A DNA stretch of 6,145 nucleotides from a virus. Lineage: Duplodnaviria > Heunggongvirae > Uroviricota > Caudoviricetes. Of this stretch, positions 1-6,145 are shown piece by piece (positions within the stretch are counted from its first letter, which is position 1; every line of letters begins with the position of its first letter). The stretch lies in IMG/VR virus record IMGVR_UViG_2703718819_000022, positions 1-6,145 of that record, one strand, 5' to 3'. Under the pieces are notes generated by a model, which was not told the origin of the DNA, did not search any database, and saw only the letters and a list, made by a program, of their open reading frames with translations. Both the position numbers and the translations under genes were made by a program.

Positions 1-405
1 ATGGATCAGGTCGTTGTTTTTCAAAAGATGTTTGAGCAAGTGAGAAAAGAGCAAAACTTCTCCTGGTTTTATTCAGAATTAAAACATCACCGTATTGCAC
101 ATTACATTTATTATCTGGCTACGGATAACATCAGAATTATTACTCACGATGACACGGTTTTGTTATTAAGAGGAACCAGGAACCTGTTAAAAGTTAGTAC
201 GACCAAGAACCCTGCTAAAATAAAAGAGGCCGCATTGCTTCATATTTGCGGAAAATCTACATTTCGGGAATACTGTTCAACACTAGCAGGCGCGGGCGTT
301 TTCCGGTGGGTTACTGATGTTAATCATAACAAACGCAGTTACTACGCCATTGATAATACGCTTTTATATATTGAAGATGTAGAAAATAATAAACCATTAA
401 TCTAG
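1..405 (+). CDS. hypothetical protein (134 aa), AT-rich; possible accessory/cargo gene; may be 5-prime truncated at the window edge
   Basis: ORF starts with ATG at base 1 and ends at TAG 403-405. Composition is visibly AT-rich compared with the rest of the window. No family recognised from the translation. Confidence 0.45.
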   Translation: MDQVVVFQKMFEQVRKEQNFSWFYSELKHHRIAHYIYYLATDNIRIITHDDTVLLLRGTRNLLKVSTTKNPAKIKEAALLHICGKSTFREYCSTLAGAGVFRWVTDVNHNKRSYYAIDNTLLYIEDVENNKPLI

Positions 406-639
406 CTAAAGTTGGATGCTTAAGAAATGCTGTTATATATAACTAATTTCACTTAACGCATTGATTTAATTAAATAATTTGCACTACAAAAAATGCCATA
501 AATCGCAAAATGACTACACCAGTGACTACACCGTTCGGTGCACTGTATGAAACAACGTGGAACAAATAGACACAAGAAATATACAGGCGGGTCATCTTTC
601 CAGGGGGAAGCGCGCTAATTCATGAGGGGCGTTAATGTC

Positions 640-1020
640 GATATGGGGATCCCCACCTACCGGAATTTTTTTCCGGTTAACTGTTAATCAGGCTGGTGGG
701 TTTTACATACCCTTGATCACCGTAATGATGATCCAGATCTGCACCTTTCCACCAATGGTGGAAAAGCCCACAGCAGGCCGCCCAGCCTCCACCAATGGGG
801 TAAAAGCATCAACCGTAACGAAAGTCGTTATGGTTGCCACCGATACCCCAAATTTGGGTATCACGAGTAAGCCCCAAAATCTGGGTGTTACTCTTACTAC
901 CCAAACTACGGGTAGTTTCCGTAGTTTCATGGTCGAGTTGCAGATCTGCAACTCCCCCATTAACCACAGGCGAATTTCCGCCTTCGGTCATTCCTTAATC
1001 ATCTGCGTAATCATAATGAT
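640..1020. repeat. dense array of short dyad-symmetric sequences (palindromes/hairpins), function unknown
   Basis: Seen directly: GGGGATCCCC 645-654; CCGGAA-T5-TTCCGG 660-676; CCACCA-A-TGGTGG 749-761 with degenerate copy near 787-799; AACGA-AAG-TCGTT 817-829; CCCAAATTTGGG 847-858 with degenerate copy near 872-886; AAACTACGG-N7-CCGTAGTTT 903-927; perfect 20-bp palindrome GAGTTGCAGATCTGCAACTC 935-954; AATCAT-A-ATGATT 1009-1021. Confidence 0.6.
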
Positions 1021-1023
1021 TAT

Positions 1024-1115
1024 TCAGCAAGCGCAATTTTGCGCTTTGCTTAAAGTTCAGCGAGTTACCGCGCCGACTTCCTCAAATTGAGGTTTCCGAA
1101 AATATCAACGGGTTA
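1024..1115. repeat. repeat block A: motif Y (GCGCAATTTTGCG...TCAGCGAGTTACCGCGCC, 1031-1074) followed by motif X (GTTTCCGAAAATATCAACGGGTTA, 1092-1115)
   Basis: Direct sequence comparison with block B at 1205-1277: motif X matches at 23 of 24 positions, motif Y shares two conserved sub-blocks separated by a diverged 13-nt spacer. Order of X and Y is swapped between the two blocks. Confidence 0.7.
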
Positions 1116-1139
1116 ACGATAAACTGGCGAGTAATTAAA

Positions 1140-1156
1140 CTACGAAAATTTCGTAG
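1140..1156. repeat. perfect palindrome CTACGAAA-A-TTTCGTAG (8-bp arms, 1-nt centre) lying between the two X motifs
   Basis: Read directly from sequence; reverse complement is identical apart from the central base. Confidence 0.7.
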
Positions 1157-1204
1157 CTCTGACTATCTGAAAGATAATCGTTGTTCCGGCCTCAGCCGTT
1201 GGCT

Positions 1205-1277
1205 GTTCCCGAAAATATCAACGGGTTAGGACAGAGCGCAATTTTGCGTTATCGGGAATATCAGCAAGTTACCGCCG
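1205..1277. repeat. repeat block B: motif X (GTTCCCGAAAATATCAACGGGTTA, 1205-1228) followed by motif Y (AGCGCAATTTTGCG...TCAGCAAGTTACCGCCG, 1235-1277)
   Basis: See block A. The last few codons of the 93-aa minus-strand gene overlap the end of this block. Confidence 0.7.
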
Positions 1278-1550
1278 TAATCGCTCCGGCTTCTTCCACT
1301 GGTACGTTATTTTTGCTTTTTCCCTGTACGTCTGCACGCGGCGACGGTAGGCCAGCATTTCAAGAACGCGGATCCGTATGTCGCGCATATCCGCATCATT
1401 AAGCTGGATACCATCACGGCGCATCACCTCCGCAACAACACGCACATAATTTTCGGCTGTCACGCTGTCCGGCTGCGTGGCCTGTTCGTCAGCCTGCTGG
1501 CTGATTCCGGCAACGCGACGGATTAATCGCAGTAGTTCGGCTTCTGTCAT
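1269..1550 (-). CDS. hypothetical protein (93 aa) adjacent to cos; candidate packaging-associated or regulatory factor
   Basis: The track ORF 1269..1748 begins at a GTG. The in-frame ATG at 1550-1548 is preceded by a GGGGG Shine-Dalgarno about 4 nt upstream (GATGGGGGCACA-ATG). Translation from that ATG (MTEAELLRLIRRVAG...) looks like a helical protein. No family recognised. Confidence 0.55.
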   Translation of the reverse strand: MTEAELLRLIRRVAGISQQADEQATQPDSVTAENYVRVVAEVMRRDGIQLNDADMRDIRIRVLEMLAYRRRVQTYREKAKITYQWKKPERLRR

Positions 1551-1583
1551 TGTGCCCCCATCGTTCTGATAGTCTGGTGTCGT

Positions 1584-1654
1584 CGGGTCCTTCCTGGAAT
1601 TATGGCCCGTTACGGGGCGGCGACCTCGCGCGTTTTCACTATTTATGAAAATTT
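1584..1654 (+). other. lambda-type cos, copy 1: cosQ-like GTTACG followed by cosN GGGCGGCGACCT (1615-1626), then CGCGCGTTTTCACTATTTATGAAAATTTT
   Basis: Near-identity to the phage lambda left-end sequence as I recall it (GGGCGGCGACCTCGCGGGTTTTCGCTATTTATGAAAATTTTCCGG), including the 12-nt cohesive-end sequence. Forms an inverted repeat with 2110-2181. Confidence 0.8.
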
Positions 1655-1663
1655 TCCGGGATC

Positions 1664-1782
1664 CATGTCCGGTTTCTCTGCAAGTTAACCATATGAAAAA
1701 TATAAAAACATGCTTTCCATGAACCGGACATGCGCAAAAAACAGACACTAAAACCGGACATCGTACCAGTTAACCGGAAGTG
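1664..1782 (+). promoter_or_regulatory. cosB-like region: one CATGTCCGGTT site (1664-1674), an AT-rich spacer (about 1690-1710), then inverted sites AACCGGACATG (1722-1732), AACCGGACATC (1752-1762) and AACCGGAAGTG (1772-1782)
   Basis: Repeats read directly. Their orientation pattern and distances from cosN (about +50, +108, +138) match the R3 / I1 / R2 / R1 layout of lambda cosB as I recall it. No terminase gene follows. Confidence 0.6.
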
Positions 1783-1955
1783 TGCAAAAATCACACGCAT
1801 TGCTGCGCGTGATTAACAATTTATCGGCTTTACTGTTCTGTATAGGCTGGGTGGCGTCATGCCGTAGCCGTTCTCCGTGCCAGCATGGAATAATCCGTAG
1901 TTACAGAGCGGTAAAGTTAAAAATCACTTTCTGTTACGCCATCAAATACGCGATA

Positions 1956-2100
1956 CAACAACCATGTGTTTTTACAAAACCATTTGATATCATTGAATTT
2001 TTTCACATTAATGACATCAAAATACATCGTAAGGTTGTTGTATTTATTTTATTTTTACCTTACTTATCAATTAGATATACCAAACAATTAAACAACAACC
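1956..2100 (-). repeat. second putative terminase-binding repeat set next to cos copy 2: ACAACAACC 1956-1964, GGTTGTTGT 2033-2041, ACAACAACC 2092-2100, with an AT-rich tract between
   Basis: Short repeats read directly. Relative to cosN copy 2 they sit at about +45, +110 and +190 on the minus strand with one site inverted. The motif is short, so chance occurrence is possible. Confidence 0.3.
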
Positions 2101-2109
2101 ACCCCCTCA

Positions 2110-2181
2110 AAAAATCTCATAAATAGCGAAAAACCGCGAGGTCGCCGCCCCGTAACGGGTCCATATGCCGGAAAGGACCCG
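2110..2181 (-). other. lambda-type cos, copy 2 (inverted): cosN GGGCGGCGACCT is the reverse complement of 2139-2150, preceded on the minus strand by GTTACG
   Basis: Minus-strand reading CGGGTCCTTTCCGGCATATGGACCCGTTACGGGGCGGCGACCTCGCGGTTTTTCGCTATTTATGAGATTTTTT aligns at roughly 85 percent (by eye) with copy 1 at 1584-1654, and is even closer to the recalled lambda sequence in the CGCGG-TTTTCGCTATTTATGA part. Confidence 0.75.
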
Positions 2182-2182
2182 T

Positions 2183-2206
2183 AAAAAAAAGCCGGATTTC
2201 TCCGGC
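2183..2206 (-). terminator. intrinsic terminator ending the capsid operon
   Basis: Hairpin GCCGGA-TTTC-TCCGGC (2191-2206) followed on the minus strand by T8 (plus-strand A-run 2183-2190), starting 7 nt after the stop codon at 2213-2215. Confidence 0.8.
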
Positions 2207-2212
2207 CTTGTC

Positions 2213-2626
2213 TCAGATGGTTTTCAGTATGCGATCGATGTCGCCGTCATCGCCCTGGTTTCTGCCATCGTACGCCATGCCAGCTGATACGGCTTGCGGG
2301 CTGTGCATGTCCATAAAGTTTTCAAAGGCTGCGGTAAGCTCTGGTGCAACCTTTGGGCGCTCCTGCTCTATGGTCATGTTCAGGATTTCACGAGCATTAT
2401 CGACGCTAATACATGGCACGTTTGCCATTGCACGTAACAGCGGCTGATAGTCGTTATGTTCATGAAGCGCCATAATCGCATCAGCGCGCGGCTTGTCCTG
2501 TTCTTCCAGTTTGTTGAGTTGATATACGGCCTCGTAGGTTGATAAACCTCTGTCAGCCATTGCCCGCGCTTCTGCTTTAAATTTACTCGCCAGCGGTAGC
2601 GCCATGATGCTTTCATTCGTTGCCAT
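2213..2626 (-). CDS. hypothetical protein (137 aa), last gene of the capsid operon
   Basis: ATG at 2626-2624 preceded by AGGGGA about 5 nt upstream; 12-nt gap after the gpD-like stop; followed immediately by the terminator. No family recognised. Confidence 0.65.
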   Translation of the reverse strand: MATNESIMALPLASKFKAEARAMADRGLSTYEAVYQLNKLEEQDKPRADAIMALHEHNDYQPLLRAMANVPCISVDNAREILNMTIEQERPKVAPELTAAFENFMDMHSPQAVSAGMAYDGRNQGDDGDIDRILKTI

Positions 2627-2638
2627 CGTTTCCCCTGC

Positions 2639-2974
2639 TTATCGCGCCAGCGGCTGAACGGATACGCCAGAACCCGCAAAGGCGGCGCATTTTTTCGCGT
2701 CAGTGTCGGCGCTCTCAGGCCAGTTTACGGCGGCGATATTAAATATCCCCGTCTTGTAACACTGTGCTGATTTCTGCTTTGACGTGTCCACGGGGTACGA
2801 AGTCAGATAAACAGCCTTGCCAGATTCCTGACCATCCCACGGCTTAAACTCGCCATTGTCCGCCAGCATCAGCGGGGTAAATTCCTGAATAACGCCAGCA
2901 TCAGCGGCAAAATGTACCAGCGTCGTGGATACCTGCTGACTGCCTGCAAATAACTCAATGTATGGAGTGTCCAT
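2639..2974 (-). CDS. head decoration protein, phage lambda gpD-like (111 aa)
   Basis: By-eye alignment with recalled lambda gpD: TPLMLADNGEFKPWDG vs TPLMLDTSSRKLVAWDG, and CYKTGIFNIAAVNWPESADTDAKKCAAFAGSGVSV vs [42 protein letters not shown] Shine-Dalgarno 6 nt upstream of the ATG at 2974. Confidence 0.85.
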   Translation of the reverse strand: MDTPYIELFAGSQQVSTTLVHFAADAGVIQEFTPLMLADNGEFKPWDGQESGKAVYLTSYPVDTSKQKSAQCYKTGIFNIAAVNWPESADTDAKKCAAFAGSGVSVQPLAR

Positions 2975-2986
2975 AGAATCCCCCCG

Positions 2987-4042
2987 TTAACCAATTTTGA
3001 CGGTAACAAATTTGCGAATATCTGCCGGAACCGGCTGCGGTGCGCTGTGCGTCTGCACGTACTCAATCGCCGGATCGCCGTCCTCAATCCAGTTTTTCGG
3101 GTAAAACATGTTTTGCGTTGCGCCCGTTCTTACCGCTTCCTGTTCCATAATCGCACCATAGGCCACCAGCCCTTTATTGTTGGTGTTGCCCAGGACCAGC
3201 AAATCAGGCTCAAGGAAATATTTTTCTGTGCCGTCGCTGTCAGTGTATTTGCCGGAATAGACGATAAGGGCCAGATCACCAAGATAGCCCTTAAAGCTCA
3301 CCACTTCGCCCAGGTTTTTACATGCCAGCTCTGCGGCGGATTCTGAACCACGGGAAAGATCGTACAGCTCACGGAATTTTTTAAAGCTGCGTAACATGCG
3401 CCATACATCAACGCCCATAATCATGACGTTGGCGGGGCAACCTGCCTGATCTGCGTATAGCTCAATGTCATAGATTGGATCGTGTATGTCTTTATCCTGC
3501 TCGGACCATTTTTTACCGTCGGCCTGCTCTATGATGTTTTTTTCCGGTATCTTCCAGTCGATTTCATAGCGCTCTATGCCTTCGCCCTCAATGATGTTTT
3601 TTCCGGTCGTTACCGCATTTACCGCCAGCCATTCCACGCGCGCTTTAATGGCGTTTATCTGGCGGCGCATGTTGCCAGTAATCAGGCGCATACGGCGGTA
3701 GGTAGGGTCGTTAAGCTGTGCCGGATCTTCTCCAGCCATGCGCATTATTGTTTTTAATGGATCGATTTCGTGTTTTGGCTTCATGTAGCCAGGGCGAATA
3801 ATGCTGGTTTCGTACCCTTTATCGCGCTGAACCAGGCTACCAACCATAGGCGAACAAAACGCCGACATAGTGACTTCTTCAATATCCAGGTTATCTAACA
3901 TGATGTCCTGTGTGTTGAATGTCGCCACGTTCGGGAAAAACAGCGCGGTAAACAGCGGACTGAATTTAAATTCCGCAATATCCTCGCGATTCAGGTACGC
4001 AAAAAGCTGGTTAGTGTTAAGTGCTATTGCTTTTACTGTCAT
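2987..4042 (-). CDS. major capsid protein, phage lambda gpE-like (351 aa)
   Basis: Full-length by-eye alignment with recalled lambda gpE (341 aa): EFKFSPLF / KFKFDPLF; PGYMKPKHEIDP / PGYVKPKHEVNP; EDPAQLNDPTYRRMRLI / EDPQNLADPAYRRRRII; LRSFKKFRELYDLSRGSESAAELACKNLGEVVSFKGYLGDLALIVYSGKY / FRSFKAVKEKLDTRRGSNSELETAVKDLGKAVSYKGMYGDVAIVVYSGQY; YPKNWIEDGDPAIEY..SAP / YPKNWVTTGDPAREF..SAP. GGGGGTGA Shine-Dalgarno; start overlaps the upstream stop as TAATG. Confidence 0.92.
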   Translation of the reverse strand: MTVKAIALNTNQLFAYLNREDIAEFKFSPLFTALFFPNVATFNTQDIMLDNLDIEEVTMSAFCSPMVGSLVQRDKGYETSIIRPGYMKPKHEIDPLKTIMRMAGEDPAQLNDPTYRRMRLITGNMRRQINAIKARVEWLAVNAVTTGKNIIEGEGIERYEIDWKIPEKNIIEQADGKKWSEQDKDIHDPIYDIELYADQAGCPANVMIMGVDVWRMLRSFKKFRELYDLSRGSESAAELACKNLGEVVSFKGYLGDLALIVYSGKYTDSDGTEKYFLEPDLLVLGNTNNKGLVAYGAIMEQEAVRTGATQNMFYPKNWIEDGDPAIEYVQTHSAPQPVPADIRKFVTVKIG

Positions 4043-4248
4043 TATTCACCCCCGTGAACCTGATTCATACCCAGCGCCGCGCGTAAATAGGCGCGTACCT
4101 GCCAGCCTGTTGACGGCTCAACCATCGCCAGCGGATCAAGTCCTGCCGCAATGCCTGCTTTTACGTTCTGCTGGTGGCGTTCCTTGAGCGCCTTCACGAT
4201 GTCGGGGCTTATGTACACCGAAACACCGCCTTTTTTCTCTTCAGCCAT
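4042..4248 (-). CDS. hypothetical protein (68 aa), first gene of the capsid operon, translationally coupled to the capsid gene
   Basis: ATG at 4248-4246 with AAGAGGA Shine-Dalgarno about 10 nt upstream; stop TAA overlaps the gpE-like ATG (TAATG). No family recognised. Confidence 0.6.
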   Translation of the reverse strand: MAEEKKGGVSVYISPDIVKALKERHQQNVKAGIAAGLDPLAMVEPSTGWQVRAYLRAALGMNQVHGGE

Positions 4249-4283
4249 AGTAAGAAATTCCTCTTTGACTTAAAAAATCATAA

Positions 4284-4299
4284 CTGGATGTTCATCCAG
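4284..4299. promoter_or_regulatory. operator-like dyad CTGGATG-TT-CATCCAG overlapping the predicted transcription start of the capsid operon
   Basis: Perfect 7-bp inverted arms with 2-bp spacer, read directly. Geometry is CTG-N10-CAG, the LexA-box geometry, but the interior is not the AT-rich consensus. Confidence 0.45.
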
Positions 4300-4304
4300 A
4301 TCTG

Positions 4305-4332
4305 ATTATAATCATGATTGCATTTTATGCAA
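4305..4332 (-). promoter_or_regulatory. sigma70 promoter for the capsid operon: -35 TTGCAT (4332-4327), 16-bp spacer, -10 TATAAT (4310-4305)
   Basis: Near-consensus hexamers read on the minus strand, about 50 nt upstream of the 68-aa ORF start. The -35 sits inside a second dyad TTGCAT-TTT-ATGCAA (4318-4332). Confidence 0.65.
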
Positions 4333-4410
4333 TGATGTTGAGTTGTGTTGCAAATTATGAAATGATGATCCCGATCATGTGTGTCAGTGCACAAAAAAAA
4401 CCTCATATGC

Positions 4411-4453
4411 AAAAGCCCGATAAGATGCCTCCTGTACTTATCGGGCTTTTTTT
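4411..4453. terminator. intrinsic terminator hairpin GCCCGATAAG-N12-CTTATCGGGC with T7 on the plus strand and T4 (then T8) on the minus strand; probably bidirectional
   Basis: 10-bp perfect stem 4415-4424 / 4437-4446, T-run 4447-4453, flanking A-runs 4411-4414 and 4393-4400. Confidence 0.7.
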
Positions 4454-4459
4454 GGGTAC

Positions 4460-4481
4460 AAAAAAGCCGGATTACTCCGGC
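4460..4481 (-). terminator. intrinsic terminator for the ssb / 90-aa transcript
   Basis: Hairpin GCCGGA-TTAC-TCCGGC (4466-4481) followed on the minus strand by T6 (plus-strand A-run 4460-4465), 7 nt after the stop at 4488-4490. Confidence 0.75.
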
Positions 4482-4487
4482 TGTTGA

Positions 4488-4760
4488 TTAGCTGTCTGGG
4501 TAATTACGCCATATTTCATCGCTTACACCATCTATACCCATTTCAGCATAAGTGCGATCTACTGCCTTTCTCAGGTCTCCGAAGTTATCCGGCGGCTCCG
4601 GTGGCTTCTGTGCCTTCCTGGAACATTCCAGCCGTCGCATCGTAACCTGATGCCGTTCCTTGTCTGTCTCCACCAGCAGCATGACTTCACCCCATCGCGC
4701 CGATGCCCTCCGGTAAAAGCCTTTTGCCTCGAGTTCCTCCGCTATGCGGTCATGTACCAT
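4488..4760 (-). CDS. hypothetical protein (90 aa) downstream of ssb
   Basis: The track ORF 4488..4880 begins at a GTG inside ssb. The in-frame ATG at 4760-4758 lies just after the ssb stop (4771-4773) and is preceded by GAGGGGG about 6 nt upstream, so the shorter product MVHDRIAEELEAKG... is preferred. Confidence 0.55.
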   Translation of the reverse strand: MVHDRIAEELEAKGFYRRASARWGEVMLLVETDKERHQVTMRRLECSRKAQKPPEPPDNFGDLRKAVDRTYAEMGIDGVSDEIWRNYPDS

Positions 4761-4770
4761 CGTCACCCCC

Positions 4771-5181
4771 TCAGAACTGAATATCATCACCGTAGGGGTC
4801 ATCGTCTCCCGCTGGTGGCTGATTACCCTGTGTGCCTGTGGTTTTGCGTCTGTTCCCGCCAGGACGTGCCGCACGGGCACTGATTACGCTGTCTGCAATA
4901 ACCTGATAACCCTGCCGCGTTTCCCCGTTCTGTCCGGTCCACTGGCTGACCTGCATCGTGCCGGATACGCTGGCAACGTCGCCTTTTTGATGTTTAGCCA
5001 GGAAGTCGGCCTGCTTACCAAATGCGATGACCGATAGCCATAACGTCGCCTGCCCATCCTGCGCCTGACTACATGGCAACGATACCGCCATACGTGCCAG
5101 CGTCATTGGTGTGCCCTTGCTGGTCTGTTTTACCTGCGGGTCGTCCACCAGCCGCCCGTAAGCTGCTATCTGTGCTGTCAT
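4771..5181 (-). CDS. ssb: single-stranded DNA-binding protein (136 aa)
   Basis: OB-fold-like core alignable by eye with E. coli SSB (WLSVIAFGKQADFLAKHQKGDVASVSGTMQVSQWTGQNGETRQGYQVIADSV vs [51 protein letters not shown]). Gly/Pro-rich linker and acidic C-terminal tip DDDPYGDDIQF (compare DFDDDIPF). GGAGAGG Shine-Dalgarno. Confidence 0.85.
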   Translation of the reverse strand: MTAQIAAYGRLVDDPQVKQTSKGTPMTLARMAVSLPCSQAQDGQATLWLSVIAFGKQADFLAKHQKGDVASVSGTMQVSQWTGQNGETRQGYQVIADSVISARAARPGGNRRKTTGTQGNQPPAGDDDPYGDDIQF

Positions 5182-5457
5182 GATTCCACCTCTCCGGTTT
5201 TAACGTTGATGGTTGTTACCTGTTCCGCTTCGGCAATCTCCCGCTCTGTCAGCGTGGCAAAATTTGCCGCCGTCGTGGTCATGAATGCGCTTATCAGTTC
5301 GGGATGTGCTTTCGCGTATCCTTCCCCCCGCGTGGCGGTCTATCGTTCTGATTGCCACCTTTAAAGCGTGCTCTGTCATGTCTAACGCGCGATATTTCGG
5401 TTCTGTTCTGTCTCTGCGTTTTTTGAGTGATTTGTTAAATCTTCCTGATGTGTGCAT
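5178..5457 (-). pseudogene. small gene immediately upstream of ssb, apparently split between two reading frames at a C6/G6 homopolymer (5324-5329)
   Basis: Frame 1 (track ORF 5200..5457, ATG at 5457) gives a plausible N-terminus (MHTSGRFNKSLKKRRDRTEPKYRALDMTEHALKVAIRTIDRH) and then low-complexity sequence. A second frame, open from 5339 to a TGA at 5178-5180, gives protein-like sequence (GEGYAKAHPELISAFMTTTAANFATLTEREIAEAEQVTTINVKTGEVES) and ends in an ATGA overlap with the ssb start codon. The two frames meet at the homopolymer. Confidence 0.4.
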
Positions 5458-5505
5458 TTTTATTTTTACCCTCGTGTTTAAAAAGTTTTAGGTTGTGGTG
5501 CACCT

Positions 5506-5729
5506 CCTCTACCTCTCTACCTAATCATCTTTCATGTCAGTAATGGCGCGGCTTTCAGATGGGTAGAGGGCTTTCGTGGCCCTCTACCCATCCTCTACCC
5601 GCCCCTCACAAACGATCTTAATCATGGTAGAAGAGGTAGAGAGGTTTTATTAGCCTTCTACCTAGCCCTCTACCCACTTATCATGTTGAATAATATGCGT
5701 TTATTTCATTCAGGTAGATGGGGTAGAGG
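5506..5729. repeat. iteron array, putative replication origin: at least 11 copies of CCTCTACC / GGTAGAGG in alternating paired orientation, separated by AT-rich spacers
   Basis: Copies read directly at 5506-5513, 5514-5521, 5562-5569 (inv), 5581-5588, 5592-5599, 5626-5633 (inv, degenerate), 5635-5644 (inv), 5654-5662 (degenerate), 5667-5674, 5713-5720 (inv, degenerate), 5722-5729 (inv). Includes a perfect 14-bp-arm inverted repeat GATGGGTAGAGGGC-N7-GCCCTCTACCCATC at 5558-5592. Lies directly after the C-terminus of the gene at 5744..6145. Confidence 0.7.
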
Positions 5730-5743
5730 GCTTTTACAAAAAA

Positions 5744-6145
5744 TTATAAAAACGCGTCACAATCATCAGTTGTAATTGCGTTGGTCTGCGTTACTCCCTT
5801 AACTCTCCGCGTAATATATTCATGTCCGTAAACTTTTGCCGCTGGCTTCATGGCCTTGCTGAACTCAGCCACGTTTAGCGGTTTGCTCCTGCCTGCGTAT
5901 GCCATAAACGCCAGATAGACGCGGTAAAGGCTGTTTCTGGTCGTGTACTTCACTGAATCGCCACCGCCGCCCATCATCAGGCCGCGTGCTTCCTCCAGAA
6001 AATTCAGGAACTGGCAAAACTCAATAACCGGATCCGTCTGTTGCTTTATTGCCAGAGCTTCATCACCGTCGCGCTGTTCCAGTAATAAAGCCCGTGCCTT
6101 TTCAGGGTCGGCAAAATTAGCCAGCAAGCGACGGATAATTACGGG
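5744..6145 (-). CDS. C-terminal fragment of a larger protein running off the right edge; putative replication initiator (primase/Rep-like) by position next to the iteron origin
   Basis: The reading frame is open to the window edge: the track start at 6127 is a TTG and the codons upstream of it (PVIIRR) continue in frame to base 6145. Stop at 5744-5746 immediately flanks the iterons. Function is inferred from synteny only. Confidence 0.5.
   Translation of the reverse strand, partial: PVIIRRLLANFADPEKARALLLEQRDGDEALAIKQQTDPVIEFCQFLNFLEEARGLMMGGGGDSVKYTTRNSLYRVYLAFMAYAGRSKPLNVAEFSKAMKPAAKVYGHEYITRRVKGVTQTNAITTDDCDAFL

Follow-up and report, generated by a model that had tools for sequence, protein, structure and literature searches.

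The stretch of DNA analysed here (the window, 6,145 bases in full) reaches only from the 3' end of an initiator gene, pri-rep, to a group of late genes. The last 133 codons and the stop codon of pri-rep (5744-6145, minus strand) encode a Pox_D5 match and a C-terminal winged-helix origin-binding domain, and are followed by an array of short repeats at 5506-5729, to which no strand is assigned. The genes that continue leftward from 5744 are co-directional and comprise an 85-aa ORF, the genes for an SSB, PerC, a 68-aa ORF, a capsid protein and a decoration protein, and a 137-aa ORF. The first gene beyond the array (5200-5457, minus strand) matches phrog_1231, a PHROG family of unknown function, over residues 12-44 only, and its Shine-Dalgarno sequence and ATG account for a conserved block at 5458-5491. 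This gene appears to be frameshifted relative to its 85-aa homologue in EcCICFT073, and it is annotated as 'frameshifted' in L001 (strain JNEC-KY203); it also lacks the overlap with the start of ssb that is present in EcCICFT073. The ssb gene itself (4771-5181, minus strand; Pfam SSB, E 4.2e-17) occupies the same place in EcCICFT073 and represents a satellite-encoded SSB of the replication module. Further along the minus strand, homology identifies a lambda gpE-like capsid gene (2987-4042) and a gpD-like decoration gene (2639-2974), homologues of EcCICFT073 c1499 and c1500, and then the 137-aa ORF (2213-2626), which weakly resembles head maturation protease families in their C-terminal part and is possibly a scaffold. 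The cos/terminase-IHF region found in phage 21 and its lambdoid relatives has an 84-94% match at 2104-2186, which is probably the cos packaging site of the satellite. Phages PhiR12_1, PhiR12_2, PhiR12_2_star, PhiR12_4 and PhiR12_5 have a hypothetical gene to which a 179-bp segment of the window (1583-1761) is 94% identical. At the left edge lies a DUF1398 (ydfO/ycgX-like) gene (1-405, plus strand), and the left ~450 bases of the window are absent from EcCICFT073.

By homology, the element in the window is an E. coli phage satellite, a PICI of the EcCICFT073 family. Positions 459-6145 are 91.6% identical in nucleotide sequence to EcCICFT073, and the gene order pri-rep, ori, hypothetical gene, ssb, perC, hypothetical gene, capsid and decoration is common to both. 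The PICI organisation (int, an alpA-type regulator, unidirectional genes, a size of ~10-15 kb and a dedicated att site) was seen in the relatives L002, L003 and L008. Those relatives that carry the window's type of origin are bounded by an integrase and lie at the cspD-clpS site, listed as a PICI site in the supplement of PMC6092414, whereas the CFT073 island lies at roxA-phoQ. The pri-rep-ori region was found in 564 of 5426 complete E. coli genomes (~10%), and ~96 of these, at 90% identity or more, form the allele group of the window. Two satellites with this replicon (L004 and L005) are inserted in lambdoid prophages, within the genes for the major capsid protein and the portal, and the embedding of a PICI in a helper prophage is an arrangement known from PMC10111431. 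In L003 and L173, the Pri-Rep/origin module is accompanied by a full head-and-packaging module (capsid, protease, portal, connectors, HNH, and small and large terminase), which is the layout of capsid-forming PICIs and means that the replication module is common to different satellite types. The L173 island is carried by a 32.6-kb circular 'plasmid' (pD17EC0246-3, CP088587.1), in which the chromosomal genes clcB, mlc and pntAB surround the integrated island. CP088587.1 is probably a misassigned contig and, its island being chromosomally flanked, it provides no evidence for autonomous replication.

Within the window the hexamer TCTACC/GGTAGA occurs 11 times, always inside 5508-5727. The 7-mer CTCTACC occurs eight times, all at 5507-5728, while shuffled sequences gave a mean of 0.24 copies and a maximum of 2, which rules out chance or low complexity as the source of the array. 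A search with the 8-mer CYYCTACC, allowing up to one mismatch, returned the same 11 sites with a span of exactly 5506-5729, so that the at least eleven clustered copies of the original prediction were recovered at a density far above the shuffled expectation. The iteron consensus is CCTCTACC(Y), with the core TCTACC invariant in 11/11 copies. Read along the plus strand, the iterons are ordered ++ - ++ -- ++ --, beginning with a plus-strand pair at 5506-5521 (5506-5513 and 5514-5521) and a single minus-strand iteron at 5562-5569. These are followed by a plus-strand pair at 5581-5599 (5581-5588 and 5592-5599), a minus-strand pair at 5626-5642 (5626-5633 and 5635-5642), a plus-strand pair at 5655-5674 (5655-5662 and 5667-5674), and finally a minus-strand pair adjoining the pri-rep stop at 5713-5729 (5713-5720 and 5722-5729). 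The alternating pairs that had been proposed are therefore seen for five pairs, but the iteron at 5562 is a singleton, whose missing partner looks like a sequence remnant (ATCT-GAA compared with ATCTACCTGAA). The perfect inverted repeat was overstated by one base, with the longest having arms of 13 bp (5560-5572 and 5664-5676) rather than 14 bp. A neighbouring palindrome has 11-bp arms separated by a 7-nt gap (5561-5571 and 5579-5589) and is formed by the singleton together with the iteron at 5581-5588.

The spacers had likewise been described as AT-rich, and this holds for the 38-bp spacer at 5675-5712, to which no strand is assigned (74% AT, window mean 52%), but not for the others, which are 54-62% AT, with one that is GC-rich (29% AT). 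The AT-rich spacer is located between opposed iteron pairs and is the proposed melting site; it lies off-centre in the array, with two iterons on one side and nine on the other. Fourteen bases separate the array from 5744-5746, where the minus-strand ORF that extends past the right edge has its stop codon, which places the array directly beyond the 3' end of that gene, as predicted. No DnaA box was found in 5400-5760 (up to one mismatch allowed) and no IHF consensus site in the iteron array, which is compatible with DnaA-independent initiation. The array gave no promoter, terminator or Rfam match, and its identity as an RNA gene, promoter or terminator was rejected on this basis. The single-strand fold of the array is strong (z = -8.9), a trivial consequence of the iterons being inverted. 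The array was also rejected as a packaging site since the cos-like match to phage 21 sits elsewhere, in the region described above.

The gene adjoining the array had been taken to be a replication gene. The 133 C-terminal residues encoded in the window score 24.9 bits against Pfam Pox_D5 (curated cutoff, 21.4), and L001, which is 100% identical to window positions 5400-6145 apart from an IS1 insertion, carries the full-length gene (L001 13121-14869). The product, a Pri-Rep of 582 aa, contains D5_N, DUF5906 (SF3 helicase) and Pox_D5 domains, so that the profile search of the full-length homologue upholds the assignment and places the neighbour in a replicative family, rather than in the non-replicative one that would have counted against an origin. 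WP_062850878.1 is an example of the full-length protein of this allele. As the window includes only the final 133 codons, an intact initiator is presumed for the window copy. Among solved structures, the winged-helix domain with which P4 alpha binds its origin (1KA8) is matched by residues 486-574 of Pri-Rep (E 5.5e-6), and the helicase core matches 7OLA (E 1.6e-14), the self-loading helicase PriRep5 of SaPI5 (PMC9371898). Pri-Rep scores exactly at the cutoff of NCBIfam TIGR01613, the P4-family primase C-terminal family, and its alignment to the PHROG "DNA primase" families covers the helicase and C-terminal halves only. Over its first ~135 residues, which differ among alleles, the protein matches a family of unknown function. 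As no primase domain could be recognised in the 582-aa protein with Pfam or PHROG, the annotation 'DNA primase family' is an inherited one, and host DnaG is the probable source of the primer.

In JNEC-KY203, the IS1 element (L001 12047-12814) is inserted at window positions 5438-5445 with an 8-bp duplication, AATCTTCC. It lies 61 bp from the first iteron, outside the array and within the 5' end of the downstream ORF. A Mu-like prophage is found at the integrase end of this island, with no integrase nearby. The IS1, the frameshifted downstream gene and the lack of a nearby integrase together indicate that this lineage may be decaying.

In Gram-negative PICIs, the origin is located immediately 3' of pri-rep and comprises two sets of iterons around an AT-rich region (PMC6092414, Fig. 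2a legend). In that study, a plasmid carrying the pri-ori region of EcCICFT073 was maintained and the delta-pri and delta-ori versions were not, although for the ori deletion colony numbers were described as 'significantly reduced' rather than abolished, and delta-pri-rep in EcCICFT073 lowered transfer from 8e3 to 50, a ~100-fold drop (PMC6092414). The array in the window is homologous to the EcCICFT073 ori (L008 38997-39284), with the origin region being ~80% identical. When the window origin was aligned with those of five relatives, including EcCICFT073, the number, positions and orientations of the iterons were found to be conserved, and across the satellite loci compared there were 9-11 iterons per locus at conserved positions with an invariant TCTACC core. 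Like the window, EcCICFT073 has 11 iterons with this core at nearly the same positions and orientations and an AT-rich stretch between opposed pairs. The two differ in that one iteron is flipped (++-++--++-- in the window, ++-++---+-- in EcCICFT073) and in that the bases 5' of the core are CC in the window but T(G/A) in EcCICFT073, giving T(G/A)TCTACC. The window thus presents an array 14 bases from the stop of an ORF with a Pox_D5 domain, 11 iterons with the 38-bp, 74% AT spacer between a ++ and a -- pair, and an initiator and origin homologous to a tested replicon. On these grounds the array is assigned to a known kind of origin, as an allele of the EcCICFT073 type, and we consider it highly probable that it serves as the vegetative replication origin of an EcCICFT073-family PICI. 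The reading of the array as an origin in the original prediction is therefore supported, for the allele in the window by homology only.

The original prediction had compared the array to both satellite and plasmid origins, and the comparison stands for satellites (SaPI, P4 and PICI) but is loosely worded with respect to classical plasmids of the Rep type. The window array fits satellite origins rather than Rep-type plasmid origins because its iterons are short and inverted and there is no DnaA box. Classical iteron plasmids (P1 oriR, F, pSC101 and R6K) also have repeated initiator sites beside an AT-rich region and the initiator gene, but their iterons are direct, phased and ~17-22 bp long, they have DnaA boxes and their initiators are of the Rep_3/RepA type. 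The window, in contrast, has a core of 6-8 bp, an inverted arrangement and an SF3 helicase initiator. In SaPI origins, the winged helix binds iterons of 5-6 nt, present in 6-12 copies directly after rep, and opposed iterons lie on the two sides of an AT-rich region (PMC9371898). The window array shares the short iterons, the AT-rich region and the opposed iterons with SaPIs, and the SF3 core is homologous to that of 7OLA. The differences are the sequences of the iterons, the Gram-positive hosts of the SaPIs, a distant protein similarity and the off-centre position of the AT-rich region in the window.

Phage P4 is similar in having an SF3 helicase initiator with a homologous C-terminal winged helix (1KA8) and 8-bp repeats, oriented both ways, directly beyond the 3' end of the initiator gene. 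In P4 these repeats form crr, which starts 46 bp after the alpha stop and contains ten type-1 repeats of 8 bp in the two orientations; ori is separate, at a distance of 4.5 kb (NC_001609). The array in the window could then be a crr-like, cis-acting enhancer of replication, with synthesis starting at a second, distant iteron cluster as in P4, since it occupies the position of crr and P4 alpha and Pri-Rep have homologous winged helices. We regard this as very unlikely. P4 has separate ori and crr, but a single cluster was found in the window and in each of four complete related islands, so that a P4-like pair of ori and crr was rejected; the only TCTACC match beyond these clusters was one stray copy in CFT073. 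Moreover, a fragment with pri-rep and ori alone maintained a plasmid (PMC6092414), and so, despite the crr position of the array, the published plasmid test points to an origin role. The P4 type-1 repeats (TGTTCACC) also differ from the TCTACC-based iterons of the window, and P4 alpha (777 aa) has a DnaG-type primase domain (PMC2777425), in contrast to the 582-aa Pri-Rep, in which none was detectable.

Distant homologues of Pri-Rep in other genera (41-52% identity) have different iteron clusters right past their stop codons (L011 4270-4520, L010 3853-4150 and L012 3920-4150). The repeated sequences are TGTTCAT (11 copies) in Morganella, CAGTGCC in Aeromonas and, in Pectobacterium, GGTGAACA, which is the type-1 repeat of P4 (GGTGAACA/TGTTCACC). 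In the Pantoea and Erwinia homologues, the 400 nt next to the stop codon contained no obvious iterons.

The iterons of plasmid replicons also serve as control elements, and the genes on either side of the window array are co-directional, with neither a terminator nor a promoter predicted there. It could accordingly be mainly regulatory, with Pri-Rep or another island protein controlling read-through into ssb, perC and the capsid gene, or with copy number being set via origin pairing. We think there is little chance of this, since the homologous region has been tested as an origin (PMC6092414), opposed iterons around an AT-rich stretch are the layout of SaPI origins (PMC9371898), and a regulatory role would supplement origin function rather than supplant it. 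That the array is the decayed former origin of a defective, non-replicating island, for which the JNEC-KY203 copy with IS1 beside the array, a frameshifted neighbour and a Mu-like prophage at the integrase end could be cited, is scarcely credible, since none of the 11 iteron cores is damaged (in relatives, single copies are occasionally lost and 9-10 are present), the L001 Pri-Rep ORF is full length (582 aa) and the IS1 is outside the array.

Taking the array as the vegetative origin, a model for replication can be patterned on that of SaPI Rep (PMC9371898). Induction by a helper phage would lead to the production of the island's Pri-Rep, with its D5_N region, SF3 helicase and C-terminal winged helix. 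The winged helix would then bind the 11 TCTACC iterons, the nearest of which is 14 bases past the stop codon of the gene that encodes it, and the bound protomers may assemble on the opposed iteron pairs into self-loading hexameric helicase rings. We infer that these rings would melt the 38-bp AT-rich spacer at 5675-5712. The island SSB would probably coat the opened strands and the host replisome would complete initiation, with priming probably provided by host DnaG. The resulting copies of the island would be packaged via its cos site.

Since the flank of the iteron core differs between the window and EcCICFT073, it was compared with the winged helix of the cognate Pri-Rep across 13 loci, namely the window (5506-5729 for the array and 5747-6046 for the protein), L002-L005, L008, L009 and L043-L048. 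Five loci, the window among them, have a C-rich dinucleotide immediately 5' of TCTACC, CC being present in 6-8 of the 11 copies, whereas the other eight, EcCICFT073 included, have T(G/A) there in 8-10 of 10-11 copies. This flank type sorts perfectly with a segment of Pri-Rep that reads NVA[E/D]FSKAM in the five loci with CC and [N/S]VN[D/E]FGKAM in the eight with T(G/A), such that the diagnostic residues are A..S with the CC flank, numbered A543 and S546 in Pri-Rep, and N..G with the T(G/A) flank. From the alignment to 1KA8 and a low-confidence model, the segment is predicted to be the third helix of the winged helix. The model, a single-sequence structure prediction of the C-terminal fragment, had a pLDDT of 58 and was used for the order of secondary structure (H-H-H-beta-beta) only. 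In winged-helix domains, the third helix is usually the recognition helix. Pri-Rep is 90% identical to its EcCICFT073 counterpart with four differences in the C-terminal 100 residues, and three of these four fall in the predicted recognition helix. The pairing of flank and helix suggests co-evolution of initiator and origin with a shift in specificity. The association probably represents a single evolutionary event, and it is therefore a lead rather than a demonstration. A smaller possibility is that the CC and T(G/A) flanks, with the A/S and N/G residues, define orthogonal specificity groups among co-resident PICIs.

The alignment of six satellite origins also revealed a conserved non-iteron block, CTGAAAGCCGCGCCATTACTG (5538-5558, minus strand). 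This 21-nt block, altered only by a C/G change in L004 and L005, is the longest near-invariant non-coding stretch of the origin. It was found in every E. coli or Shigella satellite origin examined and in 14 satellite loci from IMG/VR, and was partly kept in the Aeromonas locus; most matches to a degenerate form of the pattern in IMG/VR were chance occurrences in coding DNA (e.g. L122). The same 24 nt are present in a group of lambdoid phages that encode an O-type initiator and a DnaB-like helicase. There the origin is within a gene, and the 24 nt occupy the middle of the origin, between two sets of four direct TGTGCGG iterons. This phage origin is represented by 61 phage records, of which 48 are Stx2a-converting phages, and Klebsiella phage versions of the block retain the core CCGCGCCATT. 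P1-like plasmid prophages also have a 26/29 match, which lies in their oriR with the GATC heptamers on one side and the RepA iterons on the other. Copies of the block outside the window include L072 4149-4172, L171 2501-2529 and L012 3954-3969. The block occurs in 1137 of 5426 complete E. coli genomes, and the 40 places sampled were all (40/40) in satellite, O-type phage or P1-like contexts. A literature search for the sequence returned no match. We tentatively raise the possibility, which we hold to be rather doubtful, that the block is a sequence-specific cis element of origins with three unrelated initiators (the SF3 Pri-Rep of PICIs, the O protein of lambdoid phages including the Stx2a phages, and the RepA of P1-like plasmid prophages), acting via a host factor, a replisome step or cross-talk between satellite and helper. 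In P1 oriR, the GC-rich stretch is reportedly a length-critical spacer of variable sequence, and this would weigh against a sequence-specific function in that origin.

Origins of the EcCICFT073 type have been on record, with experimental tests, since 2018 (PMC6092414) and are thus already known. Since the window carries an origin of this type in a close relative of the model element, the interest of the array itself is low, and as far as could be checked only the allele-specific iteron flank and the shared block go beyond published work. In practical terms, the array allows the window to be annotated as a PICI of the EcCICFT073 family whose origin looks intact. The CC and T(G/A) alleles would provide a natural pair for studying how initiators tell their own origin from that of a neighbour, and the presence of the same block in Stx-phage and P1-like origins hints at a shared, host-dependent step of initiation.
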